In this document: positions 6,770 through 45,597 of the stretch, one piece after another
Position numbering within the stretch: position 1 is the stretch's first letter
How the letters are laid out: each line of letters opens with the position of its first letter
Source: Rhizophagus irregularis
Taxonomy: Eukaryota
Assembly: GCF_026210795.1 (NCBI RefSeq)
Contig: NC_089432.1
Span: forward strand, 744,001-808,000
DNA: 64,000 nt
Direction: 5' to 3'
Notes under the pieces: generated by a model
What the model saw: the letters and a program-made list of their open reading frames with translations, nothing else
Told to the model about the DNA's origin: nothing
Database searches by the model: none
Made by a program: the position numbers and the translations under genes

Positions 6770-9700
6770 TCAAATCTTGTTCCAGTCAACTAAATATAAT
6801 AAAGTATAAAATATCTTTAATTCAATATCATATTTTAGTAAGTAAAGAATTATAAACTTACCAATCAAATTTGAAGAGAATTTATGATATTCCGAAGGTT
6901 CGGTACTAGTATGCGATTCAGAAATTAAATTACCATCCATTCTTTCAAATTCATCCAATATTTCATTAATAGTTGGTCTTAATCTAGGTTCTTGACTCCA
7001 ACATTTTGTATAAAGTTTCTCATATTTTTCAGGAGTATTGGGAACTAACTTTTCACGAGTATTATTATTAACAATAGAAGCAGCAAGTGCCATTTTATCA
7101 TCAATATGTTTAAATGGAGGATGACCACTAGAAATTTCCCACATTAATACACCAAAGCTATAGATGTCTGAAGATTTAGTATATGGGGATTCTGGATTTT
7201 TAAGATGTTCTGGTCCCATATAAGAAATAATACCAAAATTACCAATATAAGCTGAAGTTTGATTATTTTGATTTTTTGAAATACCAAAATCTGTGATTTT
7301 AGCATTATTTTCATGAATAACTATATTCTTAGAATGCTAAAAAAAAAAATAAATTACATAAATAAATTATTGCTGCTAGTACTAATATGATATTAAATAA
7401 TAAATACTAATACTTACAAGATCTCTATGTAAAATATTTACATGATGCAAATAATTTAATCCATCTGCAATTTGAAATGCTAATTTTTTCTTATCATTCC
7501 ATGTCAAATTATTAAAATTATTTTTGAGATAATTTTGAAGATCCCCATCATTAGCATACTGCATAATAAGAAGATATTCATTTGTTTTTGGATCTAAAAA
7601 TAATTTATAAGAAATTAAAAAAATAACAAAAAATGTAATGTAAAAAAAAAAAAGTTTCAAATTACCTAAACTAATACCAAAGCAACGTATAATTCTTTCA
7701 CTATAATCAAGTTGCATATGCATTTTTAGTTCATGAGTAAATGCATCTAACAAATCATTCTTAATATAAGTTGTGTTAGTTAATTTTTTACAAACAACAT
7801 AATTATTAGTTTTAGTCCAAATTGCTTTAGATATTATTCCAAACCTTCCTGCATCAAGTGGTTCCACATTTTTTAATTCTTTATAAGATATAAGTTTAAC
7901 TTTTTCATATTTTAAAGCATTTTCAATCCATTTATTTGCGCCTAAACTTCCTTTTTCTACTCTTTTAAACGGGCTTTTTAAAACTTCTTTCACCCCTTTA
8001 CCAATCTTATAAAAGAATCCAGGTCTATATTGTGCATTGCTAAATCTTTGTTGAACCGCTTTTTGATACCAATAAGAGGCTTTAACTTCATCTTTTTTAA
8101 CACCAATTCCTTCTTTATAACAAACCCATAAATTAAATTGTGCTTCTTTATCTCCATTTTCTGCTGCTTTTTTATACCAATAGAAAGCTTTTTCTAAATT
8201 CTTTTCTATTCCTATTCCATTTGTATAACATATAGCTAAATTAAACATTGCATAAGTATTACCATTTTCTGCTGCTTTTTGATACCAATGAAATGCTTTT
8301 TCTAAATTCTTTTCTGTTCCTTCTCCATTATAATAACATATGGCTAAACTATTCATAGCAACTTCATTACTATTTTCTGCTGCTTTTTGATACCAATAGA
8401 AGGCTTTTTCTAAATTCTTTTCTGTTCCTTCTCCATAGTAATAATATATGGCTAAACTATTCATTGCAGCTTCATTACCATTTTCTGCTGCTTTTTGATA
8501 CCAATAGAAGGCTTTTTTTAAATTCTTTTCTGTTCCTTCTCCATTGTAATAACATATAGCTAAATTATTCATTTCATTTTTATTGCCATTTACTGCTGTT
8601 TTTTGATACCAATAGAAGGCTTTATCTAAATTCTTTTCTGTTCCTTTTCCATTTTTATAGAATATAGCTAAACTATTCATTGCATAAGTATTACCATTTT
8701 CTGCTGCTTTTTGATACCAATAGAAAGCTTTTTCTAAATTCTTTTCTGTTCCTTCTCCATTTTCATGACATATGGCTAAACTATTCATTGCTTTTTTATC
8801 TCCATTTTCTGCTGCTTTTTGATACCAATAGAAAGCTTTTTCTAAATTCTTTTCTATTCCTTCTCCATTTTTATAACATATGGCTAAACTATTCATTGCT
8901 TTTTTATCTCCATTTTCTGCTGCTTTTAGATACCAATAGAAAGCTTTTTCTAAATTCTTTTCTATTCCTTCTCCATTTTTATAACATATGGCTAAATTAT
9001 TCATTGCAGTTTCATTGTCATCTTCTGCTGCTTTTTGAAACCAATGAAATGCTTTTTCTAAATTCTTTTCTGTTCCTTCTCCATTTTCATGACATATGGC
9101 TAAATTATTCATTGCCTTTTTATTGCCGTTTTCTGCTGATTTTTGAAACCAATAGAAGGCTTTTTCTAGATTCTTTTCTGTTCCTTCTCCATTTTCATGA
9201 CATATAGCTAAATTATTCATTGCATTTTTATCTCCATTTTCTGCTGCTTTTTGATACCAATGAAATGCTTTTTCTAAATTCTTTTCTGTTCCTTCTCCAT
9301 TTTTAAAACATATCATGGCTAAATTAGTCATTGCATTTTTATTGCCATTTTCTGCTGCTTTTTGAAACCAATAGAAGGCTTTTTCTAAATTCTTTTCTGT
9401 TCCTTCTCCATTGTAATAACATATGGCTAAACTATTCATTGCAACTTCATTACTATTTTCTGCTGCTTTTTGATACCAATAGAAGGCTTTTTCTAAATTC
9501 TTTTCTGTCCCTTCTCCATTATAATAATATATGGCTAAACTATTCATTGCAGCTTCATTACCATTTTCTGCTGCTTTTTGATACCAATAGAAGGCTTTTT
9601 CTAAATTCTTTTCTGTCCCTTCTCCATTTTCATGACATATGGCTAAACTATTCATTGCTTTTTTATCTCCATATTCTGCTGCTTTTTGATACCAATAGAA

Positions 9701-12700
9701 GGCTTTTTCTAAATTTTTTTCTGTTCCTTCTCCATTTTTATAACATATGGCTAAATTATTCATTGCAACTTCATTACTATTTTCTGCTCCTTTTTGAAAC
9801 CAATGAAATGCTTTTTCTAAATTCTTTTCTGTTCCTTCTCCATTTTCATGACATATGGCTAAATTATTCATTGCTTTTTTATTGCCATTTTCTGCTGATT
9901 TTTGAAACCAATAGAAGGCTTTTTCTAGATTCTTTTCTGTTCCTTCTCCATTTTCATGACATATGGCTAAATTATTCATTGCATTTTTATCTCCATTTTC
10001 TGCTGCTTTTTGATACCAATGGAATGCTTTTTCTAAATTCTTTTCTGTTCCCATTCCATTTTTATAACATATCATGGCTAAACTAGTCATTGCATTTTTA
10101 TTGCCATTTTCTGCTGCTTTTTGAAACCAATAGAAGGCTTTTTCTAAATTCTTTTCTGCTCCTTCTCCATTGTAATAACATATGGCTAAACTATTCATTG
10201 CAACTTCATTACTATTTTCTGCTGCTTTTTGATACCAATAGAAGGCTTTTTCTAAATTCTTTTCTGTCCCTTCTCCATAGTAATAATATATGGCTAAACT
10301 ATTCATTGCAGCTTCATTACCAATTTCTGCTGCTTTTTGATACCAATAGAAGGCTTTTTTTAAATTCTTTTCTGTTCCTTCTCCATTGTAATAACATATA
10401 GCTAAATTATTCATTTCATTTTTATTGCCATTTACTGCTGTTTTTTGGTACCAATAGAAGGCTTTTTCTAAATTCTTTTCTGTTCCTTTTCCATTTTTAT
10501 AACATATAGCTAAACTATTCATTGCATAAGTATTACCATTTTCTGCTGCTTTTTGATACCAATAGAAGGCTTTTTCTAAATTCTTTTCTGTCCCTTCTCC
10601 ATTTTCATGACATATGGCTAAACTAGTCATTGCTTTTTTATCCCCATTTTCTGCTGCTTTTTGATACCAATAGTAGGCTTTTTCTAAATTTTTTTCTGTT
10701 CCTTCTCCATTTTTATAACATATGGCTAAACTATTCATTGCAGTTTCATTGTCATTTTCTGCTGCTTTTTGAAACCAATGAAATGCTTTTTCTAAATTCT
10801 TTTCTGTTCCTTCTCCATTGTAATAATATATGGCTAAACTATTCATTGCAACTTCATTACTATTTTCTGCTGCTTTTTGGTACCAATAGAAGGCTTTTTC
10901 TAAATTCTTTTCCGTTCCTTCTCCATTTTCATGACATATGGCTAAATTATTCATTGCTTTTTTATTGCCATTTTCTGCTGATTTTTGAAACCAATAGAAG
11001 GCTTTTTCTAAATTCTTTTCTGTTCCTTCTCCATTTTCATGACATATGCCTAAATTATTCATTGCATTTTTATCTCCATTTTCTGCTGCTTTTTGATACC
11101 AATAAAATGCTTTTTCTAAATTCTTTTCTGTTCCTTCTCCATTTTTATAACATATCATGGCTAAACTAGTCATTGCATTTTTATTGCCATTTTCTGCTGC
11201 TTTTTGAAACCAATAGAAGGCTTTTTCTAAATTCTTTTCTGCTCCTTCTCCATTTTTATAACATATGGCTAAATTAAACATTGCATAAGTATTACCATTC
11301 TCTGCTGCTTTTTGATACCAATGAAATGCTTTTTCTAAATTCTTTTCTGTTCCTTCTCCATTGTAATAATATATGGCTAAACTATTCATTGCAACTCCAT
11401 TACTATTTTCTGCTGCTTTTTGACACCAATGAAATGCTTTTTCTAAATTCTTTTCTGTTCCTTCTCCATTTTTATAACATATGGCTAAACTATTCATTGC
11501 AACTTCATTACTATTTTCTGCTGCTTTTTTTTGATACCAATAAAAGGCTTTTTCTAAATTCTTTTCTGTTCCTTCTCCATTGTAATAACAAATGGCTAAA
11601 TTATTCATTGCATCTTTATTGTCATTTTCTGCTGCTTTTTGATACCAATAGAAGGCTTTTTCTAAATTCTTTTCTATTCCTTCTCCATTGTAATAACATA
11701 TGGCTAAATTATTCATTGCAATTTCATTACCATTTTCTGCTGATTTTTGATACCAATGAAATGCTTTTTCTAAATTCTTTTCTGTTCCTTCTCCATTTTT
11801 ATAACATACGGCTAAACCAGTCATTGCATCAATCTGATCCTTTTCTGCTGACTTTTGATACCAATAGAAGGCTTTTTCTGAATTCTTTTCTGTTCCTTCT
11901 CCATTTTTATTACAAATGGCTAAATTATTCATTGCATCTTTATTGTTATTTTCTGCTGCTTTTTGATACCAATAAAAGGCTTTTTCTAAATTCTTTTCTG
12001 TTCCTTTTCCATTTTCATAACATATGGCTAAATTATTCATTGCAATTTCATTACCATTTTCTGCTGATTTTTGATACCAATGAAATGCTTTTTCTAAATT
12101 CTTTTCTGTTCCTTCTCCATTGTAATAACATATGGCTAAACCAGTCATTGCATCAATCTGATTTTTTTCTGCTGCTTTTTGATACCAATAGAAGGCTTTT
12201 TCTAAGTTCATTTCTGTTCCTTCTCCATTGTAATAACATATGGCTAAATTATTCATTGCATTTTTATTGTCATTTTCTGCTGCTTTTTGATACCAATAGA
12301 AGGCTTTTTCTAAATTCTTTTCTGTTCCTTCTCCATTGTAATAACATATAGCTAAATTATATATTCCATTTTTATTGCCATTTTCTGCTGCTTTTTTATA
12401 CCAATAAAAGGCTTTTTCTAAATTCTTTTCTGTTCCTTCTACATTTTTATAACATCTGGCTAAACTATTCATTGCATTAATATGACCATTTTCTGCTGCT
12501 TTTTGATACCAATAAAAGGCTTTTTCTAAATTCTTTTCTCCATTTTCATAACATATGGCTAAATTATTCATTGCAATTACATTACCATTTTCTGCTGATT
12601 TTTGATACCAATAAAAGGCTTTTTCTAAATTCTTTTCTGTTCCTTCTCCATTGTAATAACATATGGCTAAATTATTCATTGCTTTTTTATTGCCATTTTC

Positions 12701-12997
12701 TGCTGCTTTTTGATACCAATGAAATGCTTTTTCTAAGTTTTTTTCTGTTCCTTCTCCATTGTAATAACATATGGCTAAGCTATTCATTGCAACTTCATTG
12801 CCATTTTCTGCTGCTTTTTGATACCAATGAAATGCTTTTTCTAAATTCTTTTCTGTTCCTTCTCCATTGTAATAACATATGGCTAAATTATACATTGCAA
12901 CTTCTTCACCATTTTCTGCTGCTTTTTTATTTTGATGAAATAATTCAGTTTCATTTTTTACACTATTAATTACATTTTTGAATTTTTCTTCAGACAT
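6770..12997 (-). CDS. Giant Sel1-repeat (~45 x 36 aa) protein with C-terminal TKL-type kinase; 4 exons (12997-7666, 7593-7418, 7336-6862, 6789-6770)
   Basis: 1871-aa ORF of AMNxLAICYxNGEGTEKNLEKAFYWYQKAAENG repeats. GT-AG introns restore kinase motifs GRFG, HRDL|HSKNI, ITDFG, YMGPE, SDIYSFG. Confidence 0.9.
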
Positions 12998-13920
12998 TTT
13001 TAGTTAAAATTTTTTTTTTTTTTTTTGCTTACAAAAAATTACGGTGAAAATCTGGCATCTCTAATTATAAACAAAAAAAAAACTAAGAAAGACGAAATAC
13101 TGAAAGTTGAAAACATTTATGTTTGTTGGCGTTATTAATTACACTAGATCAACAGTTTGTGTAATTTAGTTCTTATTATGTTTTCTAAAATGGATGTCGC
13201 ACAAAAAAACGAACAGACAAATGATCAGCGATCACATGATATTAGACCAATCAAATGGTTTATTGTGCACAATAAATTACCTGCCGATCAAGAACTCACG
13301 TGACATTACTTCTGGAAGGACGAAGAGATTTAAAAAGCATAGGATACGTGAAACAATTAAAAGTCAAATATTGCTATAGATATAAAAAAAATTCGGTTTA
13401 CTAAAGCCTACGAACAAGTATTTACGCGAGAAGGCTCCGACAATGTCGTTAGTAAAAATGGTCAGAATATTTTTTAGAATATTTGACTCTAGTTAGTAAT
13501 TAATATTTTTCCTGATACACGATTTTTTGCCTGATACACAATTTATTATAACCATTTTTTAATTATAAAATCACATGATACCGGATAAAATGATGATATT
13601 TGTACGAAAATATTTAATCGGCAAATCAGGCTTAATAATTTCATAACATTTTCTTTAAAGATATATTTTAATTCTATTTTCATTAAGATTATTTGTATAA
13701 ATTTATATTCTAATGTAAAAAAAAATTTCAAGTTCAGTGATTCTTTTAAAACTATTAAAACAATTAATAAAACTCTGCGTATAAAACCAAATTTATTCTA
13801 ACATTAAAAGAAGTTATATTATTTTAATGATGCATTAAAAATTCGTTATTTGCAGAATTTTAATTTGTATATTCAATAAGCAAAATTCTATATCAGTTTC
13901 CAAATGAAATTAGTTAGTAA

Positions 13921-23870: not shown

Positions 23871-26093
23871 CTAACCAATATTTCTGATATTGAGGATACG
23901 TTCATTATGTTTTAACAATATTATCTGATTATTGTGATTGAATTCCGAGGGTCCAGTGATGTTTTTTTGCTAAATTTGTAGTAATGCATAAGAAAAATAA
24001 TTAAAGAACGTTGATTTTTAAGTATTTCTTTTTCTTTTTTAACCCAATTTTATTAATTAATTATAATCGGGTTGGTTTTTTTTTAAACCGAAAAAACTTT
24101 CAAAATTTTTTTTTCGGTTTTTTTTAACCTAATTCCTGTTGATGAAATTTTAATGCTATTTTTTTTTTTTTTGCTAATTACTTAAAAGTTTAATTTGTCT
24201 TATTAATCATATTTTATTTTTTTCCAAACAAAAAAAAATGTTTTTCAAACCAAAATATTTTTTTTTTAGATAGTTCTATTTACTTATTAATTATTAAATA
24301 TTAACATTAATATATGCATCTTTAAGTGCAAAAGCTACTGAACATTTATATAATCAATTTTTTTTAGTTTAGCAAGTGTAATAAGAGATAAGAAATAAAA
24401 ACGTTAGGGAACTTCTTATATATTTAAAGTGTCATAGGTAGTACAAAAGGATACGAAAGGGTCAAATTTTACTGTCTACTAAATTAGTAAAATTTCATAC
24501 ATAAATAAAAAACTTCTATTTGGCTTTTAGACGTAATCTCATTATAATTGTAAATAAAAAAAAACTTATAAAATGAAATAAATTGATAATGTAGTATTTG
24601 CGTAAATTTTCTTAAATACGGATTATTTTATTTTATAATATTTTAAAACATTCAATTTTTTATTTTGGATTTTAATTTAATTACTTTCCATTACTTTGTA
24701 TAGTTGTATAAGGATTTTAAATTAATAGGTATATAGCAATCATGTATGGTATGGTAAGGAACTCTTTCAACTACTTATAACTTTTGAGAAAATAACATAT
24801 CTACGAGAGTGAATAAACAGTTGATGATGTCAGAAATGCGTAAACTTCTCTGTCTATTTTTTTCGTTCTGAAAATTTTTTGGACTGATGATTGATGTATA
24901 GAGTTTTACTAAAAAGTTGTTTTTGACCGGTTTTGTAAAAAAAAAAAGAAAAGAAAATACCCAAAAAGCTGGCAGCCTGGCATGGGCCAAGGTTTTTAAA
25001 AAGGCAAGTCTAGAAAGAAGCAACACAGGATAACAAATAATTAAACCAATTTTAACTTTTTTTATAGTCTTTGGATACTTGGACTTGAACTTTTCGGTCT
25101 TTTGGTGATTAATTAGTGATGGAACATGAGGTGATTGTTGTGGTACTGCAACGAATATTCACACCGTAGTATTACCTACAAGGATAATCATCCTTTGACA
25201 CCAGACCTATTGCATTTGCCAAAATAATAACTTCATTTCCGAGTTCATTAGTAAATACAAAAATAACAAAAATAAAACAAATTGGAAAATCCGCTCAAAT
25301 TTTTTTTTTTATTAAGATCAAATTTCTAAAATTAGTTGTTCATAATTATCACCAATCAAATAATTTAACCCAAATTTTTAATATCAACTTCATATCATCT
25401 ATATAATTAAAATCTATATAATTAAACAAGTGGCATTTTCGTTTCTTATGATGTAATATGTTCATAAACAAGTAGTAATAAATGACAGGAAAGTTGAAGT
25501 ATTAGTAGTTTATTGCGGAACATAGTTACTTTTGGGTTAACTTTATTGTTGTAAACAGGGACAGAAAAGTATAACAATTGTCAACAATGGAATTTGAAGG
25601 TATAAAAAACATGTAAAAGACATCAATATTAAGATATATTTTGTATAGAAAGGGTATATGGTGAAATGAGAAGGTTGGCCAAATAATAAATTAATTTTTT
25701 TTTTGTTTCGAAGTGCTATAATTATTTAAAAACAATATAAAAAAATAGTATAATAAAAATAATAAAAATAAGCAAACTAACTTTACTAATTAATATTATA
25801 TATAAAATAATTTCATTGGTGCCTAATAATTATCTAAGATGAAATGAATAATCAGTTACTGCAAATCTGCAATTTTGTAATAATTGAAATACATTCCGGT
25901 TATGCAACATTTGTTTGTCATATATGCAATGATGCAATGCTTGTACTTGTGAACAACGCTTTTGCACATAATGCATTTTGCATAAATATTATTACCATAT
26001 TTATTCATACAAATAGGGGCTTTTAATAATAATAATAAAAAAAAAAGATATTTACTTTATCCTTTTCAATTAGGGAGAATTTTTGATATAGCA

Positions 26094-29000
26094 ATGGACC
26101 AATGTATTGGTAAAGGTAAAGTATATAACATGAATAATAATATAAATTAGAATTATTCAAAATTATTAAACCAAATTTGCAATATAACAAAACTAGTTTC
26201 TAGTAATATTGAAGAATTTGAGGAAAGTGGTACTGAAGAATTTGAAGGAAGTGGCACTGAAGAATTTGAAAGTAGTAGTATTGATGAATTTGAAGGAAGT
26301 TACACCAAGGAATCTGAAGGTATATCAAACAAACTGAAATTTAAGTTTTTATTTATAAACAATTCAAATACTACAAATATAATTTAGACTAACTATATTA
26401 TATAAAAATTATATTAAATATTTAGCTCGTAAGTTAATATAATTGAATAATAATGAATTACTCATTATTTTATTGTATTCCACATAACTAAATAATTTAT
26501 TCGATGATTAATGATGATGTAGTTAGTAAGTTATCAGTTATTTAAATCTTTAGTCCTTTACTTTATTTATTCTACATATATAACATTCAAATAACTAAAT
26601 TCTTTGCTTAAATAACTATTTAATAATTAATTATATTATTACAGTTGGTAAGTTACAACATATATATTATATTTATTTGTTTAATATTTTACATAATTCA
26701 ACTAATTATATTCTTAATTTAAATAACTAGATTGTAAGTAATATATATAATTTACAGCAAATAATGTTATATTATCTTTATATCCAACTAATTAATAATA
26801 ATTAACAATACTACAGGGTGTAAGTTATATGATATTTATATTTGTATTATTTATAAAATTTAACTAATTCTTTATTTAAAAAATTATTAAATAATATAGG
26901 GGGTAAGTTATTTATTTACTTATAATATTTACATATAATTTAAACTAACTAATTTCTTTATTTAAAAATTATTAGATAATATAGCTCGTAAGTTATTTAT
27001 TTAATTCTATTATTACTTATTGTTATAATATTTTCATATAATTTAAAATAACTAATTTCTTTATTTAATAATATAGCTCGTAAGTTATTTATTTAATTCT
27101 ATTATTACTTATTGTTATAATATTTACATATAGTCTAAACTAACTAATTTCTTTATTTAAAAAATTATTTAATAATATAGTTCGTAAGTTATTTATTTAA
27201 TTCTATTATTACTTATTGTTACAATAATTTAAACTAACTAATTTCTTATTTAAAAAATTATTTAATAATATAGCTCGTAAGTTATTTATTTAATTCTATT
27301 ATTACTTATTGTTATAATATTTACATATAATTTAAACTAACTAATTTCTTTATTTAAATATTATAGGGTGTAAGTTATTCATTTAATTCTATTATTAAAT
27401 AATTTAAACTAACTAATTTCTTTATTTAAAAATATTATTAAATAATATAGTTTGTAAGTTATTTATCTAATTCTATTATTACTTATTGTTATAATATTTA
27501 CATATAATTTAAACTAACTAATTTCTTTATTTAAAAAATTATTTTATAGATGGTAGGTTATTTATTTAATTCTATTACAGTATTACTTATTGTTATAATA
27601 TTTACATATAATTTAAACTAACTAATTTCTTTATTTAAAAAAATTATTAAATAATATAGGGTGTAAGTTATTTATTTAATTCTATTATTACTTATTGTTA
27701 TAATATTTACATATAATTTAAACTAATTATTTAAAATATTATTAAATAATTAAGTGGGGTGTAAGTTATTTATTTAATTCTATTATTACTTATTGTTATA
27801 ATAATTACATATAATTTAAACTAACTAATTTCTTTATTTAAAAAATTATTAAATAATATAGCTTGTAAGTTATTTATTTAATTCTATTATTGCTTATTGT
27901 TATAATAATTACATATAATTTAAACTAACTAATTTCTTTATTTAAAAAATTATTAAATAATATAGCTTGTAAGTTATTTATTTAATTCTATTATTACTTA
28001 TTGTTATAATATTTACATATAATTTAAACTAACTAATTTCTTTATTAAAAAATTATTAAATATTATAGACGGTAAGTTACTTATTTAATTCTATTATTAC
28101 TTAGTTATTGTTATAATATTTACATATAATTTAAACTAACTAATTTAAAAAATTATTTATGATCTAGTTTGTAAGTATCTCTACTGTTACATATTTTATG
28201 TAATATTTATTTGCTAACTGAATTCTTTCATTTAAAAAATATCTGTTACTTTACTAGTTGGTAAGTTGTAAATTGTAGGTTACCATATGTATTTATCTGA
28301 AAAATTAAGACTTATATTAATTAAATTTCTATTTAAATTTTAGAGTAAGTAATGATATATTTTGTGTGAATTATAATACAATCTATAATACAATTTTAAT
28401 TATTTATAGATTTGGAAAAAGTGGAAATGCAATTATAGATGATTTTATTCTTGAAAAAAAATTAAGATGGATTCCTTATAACAAATTTAAAAATGTTGAA
28501 TATCTTACTGAAGGAGGATTTGGTACTATATATAAAGCTATTTGGTTAAAGAATAATAGAGATGGAGATGAAGTAATTCTTAAATGTCACAAGAATTTAA
28601 ATGAAAATTTAAATGAATTTTTAAAAGAAGTATGATAGTATATTATTTTCTATTTTTAATTTGAATTAAAATTTATCTATATTAATAAATTATTATTATT
28701 ATTTATAGTGGGAATATCATACAAGTGTTTTAACTTCAAGAGAAATTATAAATGTTTATGGATTCACAAAAGATCCAAATACTTCAAAATATATGGTTGT
28801 AATGGAGTATGCAAATAAAGGTAATTTAAGAGAAAATTTAGCAAGAATAGTCAAAAATAATTGGAATCAAAAATTATATATGTTGTACGAAATTATTTCT
28901 GGACTTAGTGAGATACATGAAAAAAAACTTATTCATTGTGATTTTCATGATGGTAATATTTTAAATCATAATGATGAGAATGAGGATAAAATTTATATTA

Positions 29001-29741
29001 GTGATTTAGGATTATGTCAACCTGTAAAATCATTTTTGAAAGAGCATAATATTTATGGTGTTGTACCATTTATGGCTCCTGAAGTTTTAAGAGGCAAATC
29101 TTATACCCCAGCTAGTGATATATATAGTTTTTCCATGATTATGTGGGAGTTTACATCTGGAATATCACCATTTAATAATAGAGCACATGATATTCAACTT
29201 AGTTTAAGTATTTGTAAAGGTGAACGTCCTGAAATTATTGAAAATACTCCACAATGTTATGTAGATTTAATGAAAAAATGTTGGAATGGAGATCCATTAA
29301 AAAGGCCATCTACTTCAGAAGTGAAAAAAGTTATTTGTAATTGGATTTTCAGTCCTGATTATGATCAAATTGATCAAATTAATGAAGAATTAAAAAACAA
29401 CATTATGGAATTTATAAATGCACCAATTGGGCATAACAATCTTGCTACTAAATCTCATCCTAAAGCATGTTTTACAAGTCGCTTACTTGATTTTACTAGT
29501 AAAAAATTGAATGAAATTCTTGAAAGTGAAGATTCACAAGCATATCATACAAGTCATTCAGATTTGAATGATTGTGTGATTAAAGATTTGAGGTCATTAG
29601 GTATGTACTATGATATATAAAAAAATTAATCTTGCAAATTATTTATATGAAAATTAATTGATCTATTTAATTATTAAAACAGATGAGAATACTAATAAAA
29701 AGTTGAATGAAATTTTTGAAAGTGAAGATTCAAGTTATTAG
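26094..29741 (+). CDS. TKL-type protein kinase with acidic N-terminus and a micro-exon-encoded segment (exons 26094-26115, 26197-26319, 21 micro-exons 26426-28344, 28410-28629, 28709-29600, 29683-29741; alternative last exon 29874-29896)
   Basis: Kinase motifs EGGFG, VILK, MEYAN, HCDFHDGN, SDLG, MAPE, SDIYSF. The predicted splice path is open from ATG 26094 to the stop. The kinase part is secure; the 5' exon structure is inferred. Confidence 0.8.
26320..28409 (+). repeat. Tandem array of ~80-120-bp intron units, each followed by a micro-exon (mostly 3 nt)
   Basis: Unit pattern GTAAGT ... (AA)CTAAC/T branch-like motif ... YAG + NNN, repeated ~21 times with minor variants; the central units are nearly identical. 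Confidence 0.85.
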
Positions 29742-29988
29742 TGTAAAAGTTAGTAAGTGAATAATTATATAATTAAGGATCTGGGTCATTAGGTATGTAC
29801 TATGATGTATAAAAGAATTAATCTTGCAAATTATTTATGTGAAATTAATTTTATTTAATATTTAATTATTTAGATATTAAAGCGGATGAAAATTAACTAA
29901 TGATTGTTTGTTTTTAAAAAATTTAAAGTGACATTTGATATTGCACATTCAAAAAAAATTGTTTTTATTTTATTCTTTTAAATTTCAG

Positions 29989-30190: not shown

Positions 30191-30883
30191 TTATAACTTT
30201 TCCAATTACTACTATGGGATATAAATTGAATAAAATAATATAAAACCATTTTCACTGATAATGTAAAACTTTTTATACTTATTCTTGACTTTTATTTTAA
30301 TATTATTTTAAATATTTTGATAAGAAACTACACCAAGGATATCTGCTGGATTATATAATGCATCAGTTACTTATTAAATGAATATATATAATTTATTGCT
30401 TAATAAAAAAAATTCAAATGTACAATAAATTATAATGTTACAAATCACAGTGAACAATTCAAAAAAAATTTTTTTTTTTCATATTTTTTTTAATTAAAAA
30501 TATATAAAAATGTTGTCATGACTTAAAAATAGTTAATCAATTGATAAAAAAGCAAATTAATCATCCGGGATAGCAAATTAATAGGCAGTAAGTAGGGTTG
30601 GATCGGTCCTAGCAAAGACCGGTCCTGTATCAGTCTTGGGACTGGTCTTCCTGGTCTTCCTGGTCTTCATTCAGAGGACGATCCATATGATTATTTGTTT
30701 CAATAAAGATGAGCCAAATTTTTATGCTCACCTATTTCTACTTTAGATTTTGTTTCAGTTTTTTTTTTTTTAACTCGAAATGATTGTATTTATAGCAAAG
30801 TTATATAACCAGACTTTGGAGAACCACAAATTGTACTATACAATGTTTTTTATTACTATAATTGTAAATTTAATTACAATCCT

Positions 30884-39126: not shown

Positions 39127-42100
39127 TTAATCTTCAATCATACAATCAAGACTTTGAGACCCTTCTTCTAAAATTTCGTTAAGTCCGCGACTTGTATAAT
39201 GTGCTTGTGAATGATATTGCATAATAGAAGTACCTGCTTGTTCTTGCACTAAAGCTTTGTCTGCTTCTACAAATTCCAACATATCATTTTTTAATCGATT
39301 ATCAATATCAGATACTTCATACTCATAATTACCATCCTTGTTTATCTCATAATATTTATTAATACATCTAATCCATTCAGATATAATTATTTCAAGCACT
39401 ATTATGGTTGGTCTATTGGATGGATCTGAATCCCAACATTTTTTCATTAAATCTATATAACACTTGGGTGTAGTTTTTATAATTTCAGGTCGTTCCCCTC
39501 TACTACAAATATCCAAGGTAAGGTGATGATCATGTGCTTTATAATTAAATGGAGGAATACCTGATGTAAATTCCCACATTATCATTGAAAAGCTATAAAT
39601 ATCACTTGCTGTAGTATAGGCTTTTTTTCTTAATAATTCGGGCGCCATATAAGGTAAAACTCCATAAATTTTATTCACTTTATTATCAGAATATTGTAAA
39701 TCACTTATAGGTTTACATAATCCTAAATCAATAATAAATAACTCATAATTATCTGATATTAAAATATTACCATCATGGAAATCACCATGAGTTAAATTTG
39801 ATTCATGGATTACTTTAAGTCCTAATATAATTTTTTTCAACAATTGTAACTTTTCTTGCCACTTAAGTTTAATTATATCAGATAAACATTTTCTCAAACT
39901 TCCTTTTTTTGCATAACTCATTATTATTATATAATTTAAATTTTTCGGATCTTGGGTAATTCCAAAAAATTGAGTAAATTTTGAAAATGATTTCTTCTGA
40001 CAATTATAATGATATTTCCACTATATATATATAATAAAAAAGATTATTAAATTTTTGAAAAAGAAATAGAGTATTGCTAATATCACCGTTGGCGATTGTT
40101 ACCTTACCAAAATTAGGGTGGCAGAATTAAAAATTTCATGAAACTCCACCCACTAATTCTGGTACAGTGATGATCATCCATCGGTGATATTTAGGCAATT
40201 TTCAACTATTAAATATAAATACTATACCTCATCCAGAAATTTGCTATTTAAACCTGATGAATTATTAAGTGATTTGAGAATAACTTCATAATCTGTTTGT
40301 CTGTTCCATTGTTGTTTGTCAAAATTCCAACTATAAATAGGTCCATCTGACCAGATAGCTTTATGAATTTCACTGAATCCTCCTTTATCATAATAATTAA
40401 TATTTGACAACTTATTATAAGGTATCCACTCTAAAATTTCATAACTATTTTTAGCATTTAGTTGTGCTTCTTGAATAAATTTATCAATAAATTCATTTTT
40501 ACTAGTCCACTTTGAAAAATCTTGTTGGAATTGTTTAGTATTACATTGTTGGCACCACTGGTAATCAGTATATGGTTGTTTGCACTCATTACATAATTCA
40601 GCTTCATTTTTAGGGTTCATTTTGTTATTTTCTGCAGCTTTTTGATGCCAATAAAAAGCCTTTTCAAAATTCTTTTCTATTCCTTCTCCATTATTGTAAC
40701 TATTGGCCAAATTAATCATTGCTTCAGTATAACCATATTCTGCTGCTTGTTGATACCAATAAAATGCTTCTTTTAAATTCTTTTCTGTTCCTTCTCCATT
40801 TTTATAACATATACCTAAACTATTCATTGCTTCTTTACCACCATTTTCTGCTGCTTTTTGGTACCAATAAAATGCTTCTTCTAAATTCCTTTCTGTTCCT
40901 TCTCCATTTTTATAACATATGGCTAAACTATTCATTGCTTCTTTGTCATCGTTTTTCGCTGCTTTTTGATACCAATAAAATGCTTTTTCTAAATTCTTTT
41001 CTGTTCCTTCTCTATTTTTATAACATACAGCCAAACTATTCATTGCTTCTTTATCATTATTTTCTGCTGCTTTTTGATACCAACAAAATGCTTTTTCTAA
41101 ATTCTTTTCTGTTCCCTCTCCATTTTTATAACATACAGCTAAATTAAACATTGCTCCAATGTGATCTTCTTCTGCTGCTTTTTGATACCAATAAAAGACT
41201 TTTTCTAAATTTCTTTCAGTACCTTCTCCAAGTTCATAACATATAGCTAAAGTATACATTGCTTCAATATAATTTTTTTCTGCTGCTTTTTGATACCAAT
41301 AAAGGGCTTTTTCTAAATTCTTTTCTGTTCCTTCTCCATTTCCATAACATATGGCTAGATTAAACATTGCTTCTTTAACACCATTTTCTGCTGCTTTTTG
41401 ATACCAATAAAAAGCTTTTTCTAAAATTTTTTCTGTTCCTTCTCCAATTTCATAACATATAGCTAAACTATTCATTGCTTTAATATGACCATTTTCTGCT
41501 GCTTTTTGGTACCAATTAAAGGTTTTTTCTAAATTTTTTTCTGTTCCTTTTCCATTTTCATAACATATAGCTAGATTAAACATTGCTTCAATATAATCTT
41601 CTTCTGCTGCTTTTTGATACCAGCAAAATGCTTTTTCTAAATTCTTTTCTGTTCCTTTTCCATTTTCATAACGTATGGAAAGATTAAACATTGCTTCTTT
41701 AATGCCATTTTCTGCTGCTTTTTGATACCAATAAAGGGCTTTTTCTAAATTCTTTTCTGTTCCTTTTCCATTTTCATAACATATGGCTAGATTAAACATT
41801 GCTTCTTTAATACCATTTTCTGCCCCTTCTTGATACCAAGAAATGGCTTTTCCTAAATTCTTTTCTGTTCCTTCCCCAATTTCATAACATATGGCTAGAT
41901 TAAACATTGCCTTAATGTGACCATTTTCTGCTGCTTTTTGATACCAATAAAAAGCTTTTTCTAAAATTTTTTCTGTCCCTTCTCCATTTTTATAGCATCT
42001 ACCTAAACTATTCATTGCTTCTTTATCACCATTTTCTGCTACTTTTTGATACCAATAAAAGGCTTTTTCTAAATTCTTTTCTGTTCCTTTTCCATTTCCA

Positions 42101-45100
42101 TAACATATGGCTAGATTAAACATTGCTTCTTTAACACCATTTTCTGCTGCTTTTTGATACCAATGAAGGGCTTTTTCTAGGTACTTTTCTGTTCCTTCTC
42201 CAATTTCATAGCATATGGCTAGATTAAACATTGCTTTAATATGATCATTTTCTGCTGCTTTTTGATACCAATAAAAAGCTTTTTCTAAAATTTTTTCTGT
42301 CCCTTCTCCATTTTTATAGCATATGCCTAAACTATTCATTGCTTCTTTAACACCATTTTCTGCTGCTTTTTGGTACCAATAAAAGGCTTTTTCTAAATTC
42401 TTTTCTGTTCCTTTTCCATTTCCATAACATATAGCTAAACTATTCATTGCTTTAAGATGAACATTTTCTGCTGCATTTTTATACCAATAAAGGGCTTTTT
42501 CTAAATTCTTTTCTGTTCCTTTTCCATTTTAATAACATATAGCTAGATTAAACATTGCTTCTTTTACACCATTTTCTGCTGCTTTTTGATACCAGCAAAA
42601 TGCTTCTCCTAAATTCTTTTCTACTCCTTTTCCATTTCCATAACATATAGCTAGATTAAACATTGCTTCTTTAACACCATTTTCTGCTGCTTTTTGATAC
42701 CAGTAAAATGCTTTTTCTAAATTCTTTTCTGTCTCTTCTCTATTTTTATAACATATGCCTAAACTATTCATTGCTTCTTTATCACCATTTTCTGCTGCTT
42801 TTTGGTACCAATAAAGGGCTTTTCCTAGATTCTTTTCTGTTCCTTCTCCAATTTCATAACATATGGCTAGATTAAACATTGCTTCTTCAATACCATTTTC
42901 TGCTGCTTTTTTATACCAACGAATGGCTTTTTTTAAATTCTTTTCTGTTCCTTCTCCATTTTCATAATATATAGCTAAACTATTCATTGCTTTAATATGA
43001 CCATTTTCTGCTGCCTTTTTATACCAATGAAAGGCTTTTTTAAAATTCTTTTCTATTCCTTCCCCAATTTCATAATATATAGCTAAACTATTCATTGCTT
43101 CTTTAACACCATCTTCTGCTGCCTTTTTATACCAATGAAAAGCTTTTTCTAAATTCTTTTCTGTTCCTTCCCCAATTTCATAACATATAGCTAAACTATT
43201 CATTGCTTCTTTAACACCATCTTCTGCTGCTTTTTGGTACCAGTAAAATGCTTTTTCTAAATTCTTTTCTGTTCCTTTTCCATTTTCATAACATATGGCT
43301 AGATTAAATATTGCTTCTTTAACACCATTTTCTGCTGATTTTTTATACCAGCAAAATGCTTTTTCTAGATTCTTTTCTGTTCCTTTTCCATTTTCATAAC
43401 ATATGGATAAATTAAACATTGCTTCTTTATCATCATTTTCTGCTGCTTTTTGGTACCAATAAACTGCTTTTTCTAAATTCTTTTCTGTTCCTTTTCCATT
43501 TTTATAACACACAGCTAGATTAAACATTGCTTTAATGTGACCATTTTCTGCTGCTTTTTGATACCAATGAAGAGATTTTTTAAAACTCTTTTCTGTTCCT
43601 TCCCCAATTTTATAACATATGGCTAAAATATTCATTGCTTCTTTATCATCATTTTCTGCTGCTTGTTGATACCAATAAACTGCTTTTTTTAAATTCTTTT
43701 CTGTTCCTTTTCCATTTTTATAACATACAGCTAGATTAAACATTGCTTCATTAACACCATTTTCTGCTGCTTTTTGGTACCAGCAAAATGCTTTTTCTAA
43801 ATTCTTTTCTGTTCCTTTTCCATTTTCATAATATATGGATAGATTAAACATTGCTTCTTTAACACCATTTTCTGCTGCTTTTTGGTACCAGCAAAATGCT
43901 TTGTCTAAATTCTTTTCTGTTCCTTTTCCATTTTCATAACATAAGCCTAAAATATTCATTGCTGCTTTGTTATCATTTACTGCTGCTTTTTGATACCAGC
44001 AAAATGCTTCTTCTAAATTCTTTTCTGTTCCTTTTCCATTTTCATAACATATGCCTAAACTATTCATTGCTTCTTTATCATCATTTTCTGCTGCATTTTT
44101 ATACCAATAAAATGCTTTTTCTAAATTTTTTTCTGTTCCTTCTCCATTTTCATAACATATGGCAAGGTTAAACATTGCTTCCTTAATACCATTTTCTGCT
44201 GCATTTTGATACCAGCAAAATGCTTTTCCTAAATTCTTTTCTGTTCCTTTTCCATTTTCATAATATATGGATAGATTAAACATTGCTTCTTTAACACCAT
44301 TTTCTGCTGCTTTTTTATACCAACGAAAGGCTTTTTTTAAATTCTTTTCTGTTCCCTTTCCAATTTCATAATATATAGCTAAACTATTCATTGCTTTAAT
44401 ATGACCATTTTCTGCTGCCTTTTTATACCAATGAAAGGATTTTTTTAAATTCTTTGCTGTTCCTTCCCCAATTTCATAATATATAGCTAAACTATTCATT
44501 GCTTTAATATGACCATTTTCTGCTGCCTTTTTATACCAATGAAAGGCTTTTTTTAAATCCTTTTCTATTCCTTCCCCAATTTCATAACATATAGCTAAAC
44601 TATTCATTGCTTCTTCAACACCATTTTCTGCTGCTTTTTGGTACCAATAAAAGGCTTTTTCTAAATTCTTTTCTGTTCCTTTTCCATTTTCATAACATAT
44701 GGATAGATTAAACATTGCTTCTTTGGCACCATTTTCTGCTGCTTTTTGATACCAGCAAAATGCTTTTTCTAAATTCTTTTCTGTCCCTTTTCCATTTTCA
44801 TAACATATTGCTAAACTACACATTGCTTCTTTATCAATGTTTTTTGCTGCTTTTTGATACCAATAAAATGCTTTTTCTAAATTCTGTTCTGTTCCTTTTC
44901 CATTTTCATAACATATGGCTAGGTTAAACATTGCTTCTTTAATACCATTTTCTGCTGCTTTTTGGTACCAGCAAAATGCTTTTTCTAAATTCTTTTCTGT
45001 TCCTTTTCCATTTTCATAACATATGCCTAAACTATTCATTGCTTCAATATCATTTTCTGCTGCTTTTTGATACCAGCAAAATGCTTTTCCTAAATTATTT

Positions 45101-45597
45101 TCCGTTCCTTCCCCAATTTCATAACATATGGCTAGATTAAACATTGCTTTAATGTGACTATTTTCTGCTGCTTTTTGATACCAATAAAAGGCTTTTTCTA
45201 AATTCTTTTCTGTTCCTTCTCCATTTTCATAACATATGGCTAGATTAAACATTGCTTCTTTAACACCATTTTCTGCTGCTTTTTGATACCAATAAAGTGC
45301 TTTTTCTAAATTCTTTTCTGTTCCCTTTCCATTATAATAGCAAATTGCTAAATTAAACATTGCTTCAATATGACCATTTTCCACTGCTTTTTGATACCAA
45401 TAAAAGGCATTTTTTAAGTTTTTTTCTGTTTCTTCTCCAGTTATATAATTATTGGCTGAATTAAACATTATTGCTTTATCACATTTCTTACACCATAGTT
45501 CTTTGGTAAAATGTTTATTGCAATATGAACAATTTTTGGAATTTACGTTATTGGTATTTTTATTCAAGATACTTGATTTACTAAATCTGGTTTCCAT
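39127..45597 (-). pseudogene. Giant Sel1-repeat (~45 units) + TKL kinase gene with one in-frame nonsense codon; exons 45597-40228 and 40020-39127
   Basis: ORFs 45597..42529 and 42447..40222 are in the same frame. TAA at 42531-42529 replaces the E/K codon of a repeat. The kinase has HGDFHDGN, IDLG, YMAPE. Confidence 0.85.
40069..40204. mobile_element. MITE-like palindromic element inside the kinase intron (40021-40227)
   Basis: Inverted ends TGCTAATATCACCG..GG / CC..CGGTGATATTTAGGCA; homologous to 22209-22346 and 50420-50467. Confidence 0.6.

Follow-up and report, generated by a model that had tools for sequence, protein, structure and literature searches.

A tandem array of codon-straddling three-base exons, hypervariable between units, ahead of the kinase domain in a tyrosine-kinase-like gene of Rhizophagus irregularis

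The window, a 64-kb stretch of Rhizophagus irregularis DNA, carries on its plus strand a gene in which two short coding exons are followed by twenty micro-exons, a one-base exon and two exons encoding a protein kinase. Its features, in window coordinates, are these:

26094..26115, + strand: coding exon 1 (ATG), with a phase-1 end; RNA joints leave at 26115 in 4/4 runs
26197..26319, + strand: exon 2, acidic repeats with a 24-nt period and a phase-1 end; RNA joints leave at 26319
26426..28260, + strand: array of micro-exons, 19 measuring 3 nt and a single one 6 nt, phase 1
26426, 26523, 26645, 26731, 26817, 26900, 26985, + strand: starts of micro-exons 1-7
27077, 27181, 27274, 27367, 27451, 27550, 27660, + strand: starts of micro-exons 8-14
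27755, 27862, 27966, 28069, 28168, 28258, + strand: starts of micro-exons 15-20
26426..26428, + strand: first micro-exon, CTC, which paralogs apparently have too
27399..28157, + strand: most recent section of the array, in which a 104-nt intron-plus-exon unit is repeated in tandem about 7 times (88% matches)
27755..27760, + strand: six-base unit with an AAG acceptor; the usual TAG position reads TGG
28258..28260, + strand: last micro-exon, TTG; skipped alone, it leaves TAA
28344, + strand: one-base exon, A, required for the kinase frame
28410..28629, + strand: kinase exon A, N-lobe, seen in P0122; the 28629>28709 splice is present in 4/4 runs
28709..29600, + strand: kinase exon B, to at least 29600, with the His-Cys-Asp catalytic loop (non-RD)

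The introns of the array measure 80-119 nt, and the micro-exons contribute 21 codons in total, the peptide containing Asp, Arg and two Pro. The 19 three-base units fit YAG-NNN-GT(A/G)RG, and splice sites are intact in every unit, older diverged ones included; the motif YAGNNNGTAAG has 19 matches in the window, 18 of them inside the array, against 1.78 expected, and this count was reached in 0/100 shuffles. For the six-base unit, we infer that the AAG acceptor three bases upstream of TGG would preserve the frame. Exon 2 ends in phase 1 and each of the 20 units keeps that phase; when exon 1, exon 2, the micro-exons, the one-base exon and the kinase exons are all joined, the frame is open throughout, with a total insert between exon 2 and the kinase exon of 64 nt. 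Readings of the array in phases 0 and 2 were rejected: the exons on either side dictate phase 1, and stops occur in phase 2. With every codon split between two units, the gain, loss or skipping of a unit also recodes a neighbouring residue, a property that an earlier note on this DNA had pointed out for skipping and that follows from the phase-1 frame. Upstream of the array, exon 2 yielded no Pfam match and no sensor domain, and the sequence of exons 1 and 2 is identical in P0147, a protein from another R. irregularis strain. Transcripts of paralogs contain, in the interval from exon 1 to exon 2 (window 26115-26197), an additional short exon some 27 nt long, which matches the longer N-termini of P0018 and P0054. 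About 4 kb downstream of exon 2, window 30305-30345 looks by eye like the end of that exon with its donor; blastn gave no match for this likeness.

The host gene is, as judged from its deduced protein, that of an intact tyrosine-kinase-like (PF07714) kinase. P0122, which spans both kinase exons, scores 151 bits against PF07714 (curated cut-off 23.1), and its sequence shows the Gly-loop, catalytic Lys, H-x-D, D-x-G and APE motifs. P0001 (Rhizophagus irregularis) is 100% identical over the large kinase exon, identity to P0122 is likewise 100%, and the best 120 matches to the kinase exon are all Rhizophagus or unnamed environmental proteins with identity of at least 66%; solved structures nearest to the kinase include RIPK1, CTR1 and Roco4. 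The residue before the catalytic Asp in these best 120 relatives is Cys in 114, His in 4, Arg in 1 and unread in 1. Non-RD kinases of plants are associated with pattern recognition in the part of PMC3411088 that bears on them; the link is borrowed here from plant receptors, and both kinase activity and binding are putative for the Rhizophagus protein. Tyrosine-kinase-like genes are described as expanded in Rhizophagus irregularis in the cited portions of PMC4219462 and PMC8647823. At the 3' end of the kinase there is a 192-nt tandem duplication (window 29494-29850) within which RNA joints skip or reverse, suggesting that C-terminal exons vary across paralogs. Two minus-strand genes, each containing some 45 Sel1-like repeats of 108 nt (6773-13003 and 39130-45597), lie beside kinase frames; the frame at 39130-40020 shows 72% likeness to the kinase exon of the array gene.

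The RNA mapped to 25900-29950 comprised two runs of poly(A) reads and a pair of contig sets. Of the reads, 25/2620 and 54/3054 were at least 99% alike to the window, almost all reads coming from paralogs, and joints 26315>26440 and 27550>28384 were ambiguous and were left out of the counts. In the cDNA-derived contigs X6 and X10, exon 2 is spliced to the first two micro-exons, and the third is joined to the fourth with both adjacent introns retained, an arrangement with which one X24 read agrees. Micro-exons are thus included intron by intron in a close paralog, and by extension from close paralogs inclusion in the array gene itself is likely. The X6/X10 copy has what looks like a dead donor and is possibly in decay; in both of these R. 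irregularis-type contigs the unit at 27181 begins AG. In addition, the consensus of spliced loose ends at 28410 finishes TTG then A (246 reads in X23, 328 in X24), which matches the last micro-exon followed by the one-base exon, and when the 30-letter consensus strings of X23 and X24 are cut in threes from that end, 9/9 triplets in each start AT, GT, GG, CT or TT, as do those of the genomic units.

One might suppose instead that the array is non-coding, a tandem repeat within a single 2-kb intron whose units never serve as exons. A joint from 26319 to 28410 does exist in RNA, though it may enclose further letters, and the phase-1 micro-exon peptide was found in 0/182 database models (the best 120, plus 33 and 29 from searches for transcript-derived proteins with the spliced peptide). 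Against this supposition, three introns flanking three-base exons are precisely removed in the contigs, reads end in TTG plus A, splice sites are kept unit after unit, and exon 2 joined straight to the kinase would be out of frame. The non-coding reading is largely refuted for paralogs, and we consider it highly improbable overall. Most database models begin within the kinase or translate introns. Nine of the best 120 end in SK ahead of FG, the one-base exon being extended to the next GT; five of the best 120 end in LE ahead of FG, an intron being read into the one-base exon, a form found in the R. clarus model P0106 too; and 5/33 short models end in ARKLI, the first micro-exon having been run into its own donor. 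These endings indicate that the first micro-exon and the one-base exon recur across paralogs. A 5-nt exon in place of the one-base exon, as in 9 of the best 120 models, was rejected: it gives a stop in phase 1, and the reads favour one base. Among the models examined, public models of this subfamily thus lose or mis-frame the N-terminus.

The earlier note had drawn attention to a different property of the array, namely that all 20 micro-exons are in phase 1 and that none begins with AA, AG or GA (hereafter starters, which can complete a stop after an exon ending in T), and both facts are correct. So is the exception it made for the final junction, where a T-ending exon joined to the one-base exon would give TAA while the actual last exon is TTG. 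Its statement that any subset of exons is stop-free holds with exon 20 fixed, in which case 0/171 non-adjacent pairs form a stop, but fails once exon 20 may be skipped, since its loss alone is enough to give TAA; 9/20 micro-exons end in T, and 164,247 of the 447,112 distinct subset strings (37%) carry a stop. The figure of up to ~2^20 subsets comes down to at most 272,015 peptides. How unusual the absence of starters is depends on the null: P is 0.011 for 20 exons under an AT-rich null and 0.067 when the 12 distinct exons are counted, and at the rate of the homologues (8/71) it rises to 0.09 for 20 exons and to 0.24 if the 12 distinct ones are counted. The absence of starters from the array gene is only mildly unusual.

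Other arrays were sought by searching metagenome contigs for a pattern of consecutive three-base exons, which returned at least 104 loci, mostly simple repeats that were not used, and at least 8 that are AT-rich arrays with similar introns. Counts given below as pooled cover the window and seven loci; L051, several of whose units are without splice sites (1 starter among 8 units), was dropped, and L002 was excluded for its 40-nt spacing. The latter (1150-1285) is an AT-rich stretch where a repeated coding-like unit contains four three-base units at intervals of 38-47 nt. A related kinase (48-56% identity) lies immediately downstream in L006, L018 and L059, and L104 has a kinase remnant; we infer that these loci come from a related fungus. 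They are without the one-base exon, and the array is in phase 1 in 6/6 loci with a readable flank; one L006 unit has a GTAAAT donor.

In the pooled arrays starters are depleted, as the earlier note had led one to expect: 8/91 exons, about 2.5-fold below nulls of 20-25% (24.8% in 407 codons from the large exons of the array gene; 24.6% across 22 long frames, some of them antisense shadows; 20% for the AT-rich null), with P from 0.003 to 0.0001, or from 0.02 to 0.002 when distinct triplets are counted (5/56). Pairs of adjacent exons form a stop in 0/82 cases; the pooled shuffle mean is 2.7 (P 0.033), and within-array shuffling gives a mean of 0.99 and a non-significant P of 0.31. The outcome that the earlier note gave as a refutation, homologous arrays freely containing stop-generating triplets, is partly realised, as two of the three long ones contain such exons: L006 has 6/18 starters, with 9/136 non-adjacent pairs giving a stop, and L104 has 2/14 starters, with 3/78 such pairs. 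Across the pooled arrays 12/531 non-adjacent pairs form a stop, against shuffle means of 17.4 when exons are pooled (P 0.23) and 7.0 within arrays, so that stops between non-adjacent exons are no fewer than in shuffles; taken with the stops that skips create in L006 and L104, this leaves stop-proofing as a designed property unsupported.

These figures also bear on a rival in which splicing, as in the nank genes of Tuber, is the main source of diversity, internal exons being skipped while the last micro-exon and the one-base exon are invariant, and selection acting on exon starts such that stops seldom arise from skips. As long as exon 20 is retained, the array gene has only stop-free subsets, L059 is likewise fully skip-safe (0/120 non-adjacent pairs), and L006 and L104 still keep 79% and 90%, respectively, of random half-subsets open. 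Selection for safe skipping also would yield the ~2.5-fold depletion of starters, and codon-sized exons of Tuber are described as extensively alternatively spliced in the relevant portions of PMC4986451, PMC13449251 and PMC9815663. The read ends ahead of 28410 show heterogeneity (agreement 0.57-0.59), but this is what paralogs alone predict, and no skip junction was present among the matches listed (15/53 joint rows and 12/61 between-letter rows, mostly paralog reads). Furthermore, the count of non-adjacent stops is not below shuffles, and one single-exon skip in L006 gives TAG. A toy model of duplication, deletion and mutation that rejects only stops in the full transcript, its base weights being our own choice, left 40% of arrays fully skip-proof when 20 units comprised 12 distinct triplets. 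Depletion of starters can be explained by selection for full inclusion together with tandem duplication, and selection for safe skipping is unnecessary to account for the pattern in the array gene. We view splicing as a possible but less likely main source of diversity.

Stop-proofing is in fact the weaker signal at this locus; the stronger one is that the codon-straddling exons are hypervariable. Where the flanks of two units diverge by 10% or less (39 pairs, mean 4.8%), the exons are unlike at 66% of their positions, these pairwise distances being non-independent, and in the array gene the triplets have diverged about 14-fold more than the introns. A disparity in the same direction is found in L006 (exon p-distance 0.75 vs intron 0.086; 8 pairs) and L104 (0.31 vs 0.055; 25 pairs). 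Exons are 36% G+C, as compared to 14% for the region, and 74/91 exons in the pooled arrays start AT, TT, GG or CT. The junction residues (n=82, pooled) include 10 Trp, 9 Tyr and 11 Asp and a single Lys; for comparison, the kinases contain 1.7% Trp, 4.8% Tyr, 6.1% Asp and 8.6% Lys. Aromatic and acidic residues are characteristic of binding loops. Since codons for Trp, Tyr and Phe start with T, phase 1 demands T-ending exons for them (34/91 in the pooled arrays), and this demand in turn restricts AA, AG and GA starts and hence Lys, Glu and Gln as well. Taken together, the sequence comparisons point to probable diversifying selection on the exon triplets.

The array could alternatively be a tolerated by-product in a bloated gene family, slippage or unequal crossing-over having multiplied intron-exon units within a flexible linker while the triplets drift and the frame alone is conserved. 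Decay of this kind is visible in places: L051 is without several splice sites, L104 has a kinase deletion and the close copy has its dead donor; moreover, the cited sections of PMC8647823 and PMC4219462 describe kinase families in Rhizophagus irregularis as highly expanded and often highly methylated. However, drift predicts similar rates in exons and introns and a trend to A/T, and neither is compatible with exons so much more divergent than their flanks, with their G+C content or with the narrow range of exon starts. We consider this explanation improbable.

We thus favour a reading, to which we assign a probability of roughly 0.55, in which diversity arises mainly in DNA, between gene copies, and forms a hypervariable loop. 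The micro-exons would likely be spliced in one intron at a time, as they are in close paralogs, and the result would be an aromatic-rich loop of about 21 residues ahead of the kinase domain, predicted to determine what the kinase recognises. The unit of change would be an intron plus three coding bases, multiplied by tandem duplication, with introns remaining alike while the triplets change about 14 times faster. Under this reading the shortage of starters would most likely stem from the need to maintain an open full-inclusion frame while DNA shuffling rearranges arrays with many T-ending exons, and some skipping may occur in addition. Diversity made in DNA and diversity made by splicing are compatible and can coexist. 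One could envision a two-layer generator in a large non-RD kinase family of arbuscular mycorrhizal fungi, with units shuffled and re-mutated in DNA and then skipped combinatorially in RNA; we hold this to be rather doubtful, yet if it were true one gene could give up to ~270,000 aromatic-rich loops for non-self or partner sensing in a multinucleate symbiont. The role in diversity and recognition that the earlier note had suggested is compatible with the hypervariability and with the precedent in Tuber, and recognition stands as the predicted function. Within the hugely expanded kinase families of arbuscular mycorrhizal fungi, the array pinpoints a small, bounded and fast-changing segment; because this segment can be sequenced and swapped, a recognition role is directly testable.

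Literature listings, the openings of abstracts and the papers cited here contained no account of such arrays in Rhizophagus or in any other arbuscular mycorrhizal fungus. The present array takes codon-sized exons beyond a truffle NLR family, into a fungal lineage far removed from it and into another class of protein, in a layout that has a codon-straddling phase and a one-base exon. Schistosome micro-exon genes (MEGs) encode secreted proteins from exons mostly of 6-36 nt that preserve the frame, and skipping has been proposed to vary the protein; unlike these, the Rhizophagus array amounts to 64 nt inside a gene for an intracellular-type kinase. In fungal NLR genes, repeats of high internal conservation are near-identical with few highly variable positions and are reshuffled by unequal crossing-over, as described in the portion of PMC9815663 that treats them. 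The array is similar in having near-identical units with hypervariable positions (0.66 vs 0.048, 39 pairs), but here the conserved part is the intron and the variable part is the whole three-base exon, and the protein receives the variable residues alone.

The metagenome search yielded further runs of codon-sized exons. In L023 (2190-7055; also L024), a gene with hydrolase-like, NACHT/NPHP3_N and ankyrin parts has, after its ankyrin region, an array of about 30 three-base exons with an 83-nt period and a phase-0 start (exon p 0.64 vs intron 0.074); this is a nank-type array in a fungus. Six other loci (L010, L032, L074, L096, L097 and L003) have up to about 26 three-base exons with an 80-nt period, the introns being nearly identical and the triplets variable. 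In two of them, L032 and L074, the array follows an open frame that looks by eye like a GTPase and has no Pfam match; arrays of this type are possibly a third gene family using codon-sized exons. More variable runs of three-base units, with 56-113-nt spacing, occur in L039, L068, L072, L091, L031, L084 and L098.

The closest known system is that of the nank (NACHT-ANK) genes of Tuber melanosporum, whose codon-sized, 3-bp mini-exons were described by Iotti et al. 2012, as cited in PMC4986451, PMC13449251 and PMC9815663; PMC3778014 contributed nothing further. As far as these citing accounts go, the two share a long tandem run of 3-nt exons, an expanded gene family, a symbiotic fungal host and a proposed diversification of recognition, and in both the mini-exons are spliced into mRNA, an observation made here for close paralogs. 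Alternative splicing is reported for Tuber in the same three sources, whereas skipping in Rhizophagus is a hypothesis. The proteins differ, nank being an NLR with the mini-exons in a C-terminal recognition domain and the host here a PF07714 kinase with the array N-terminal of the catalytic domain. In contrast to the phase-0 NACHT-ANK array of L023, moreover, the Rhizophagus array is in phase 1, its codons straddle exons and it ends in a one-base exon. The Rhizophagus array thus resembles Tuber nank in layout but, by host protein, position and phase, is not a member of that family.
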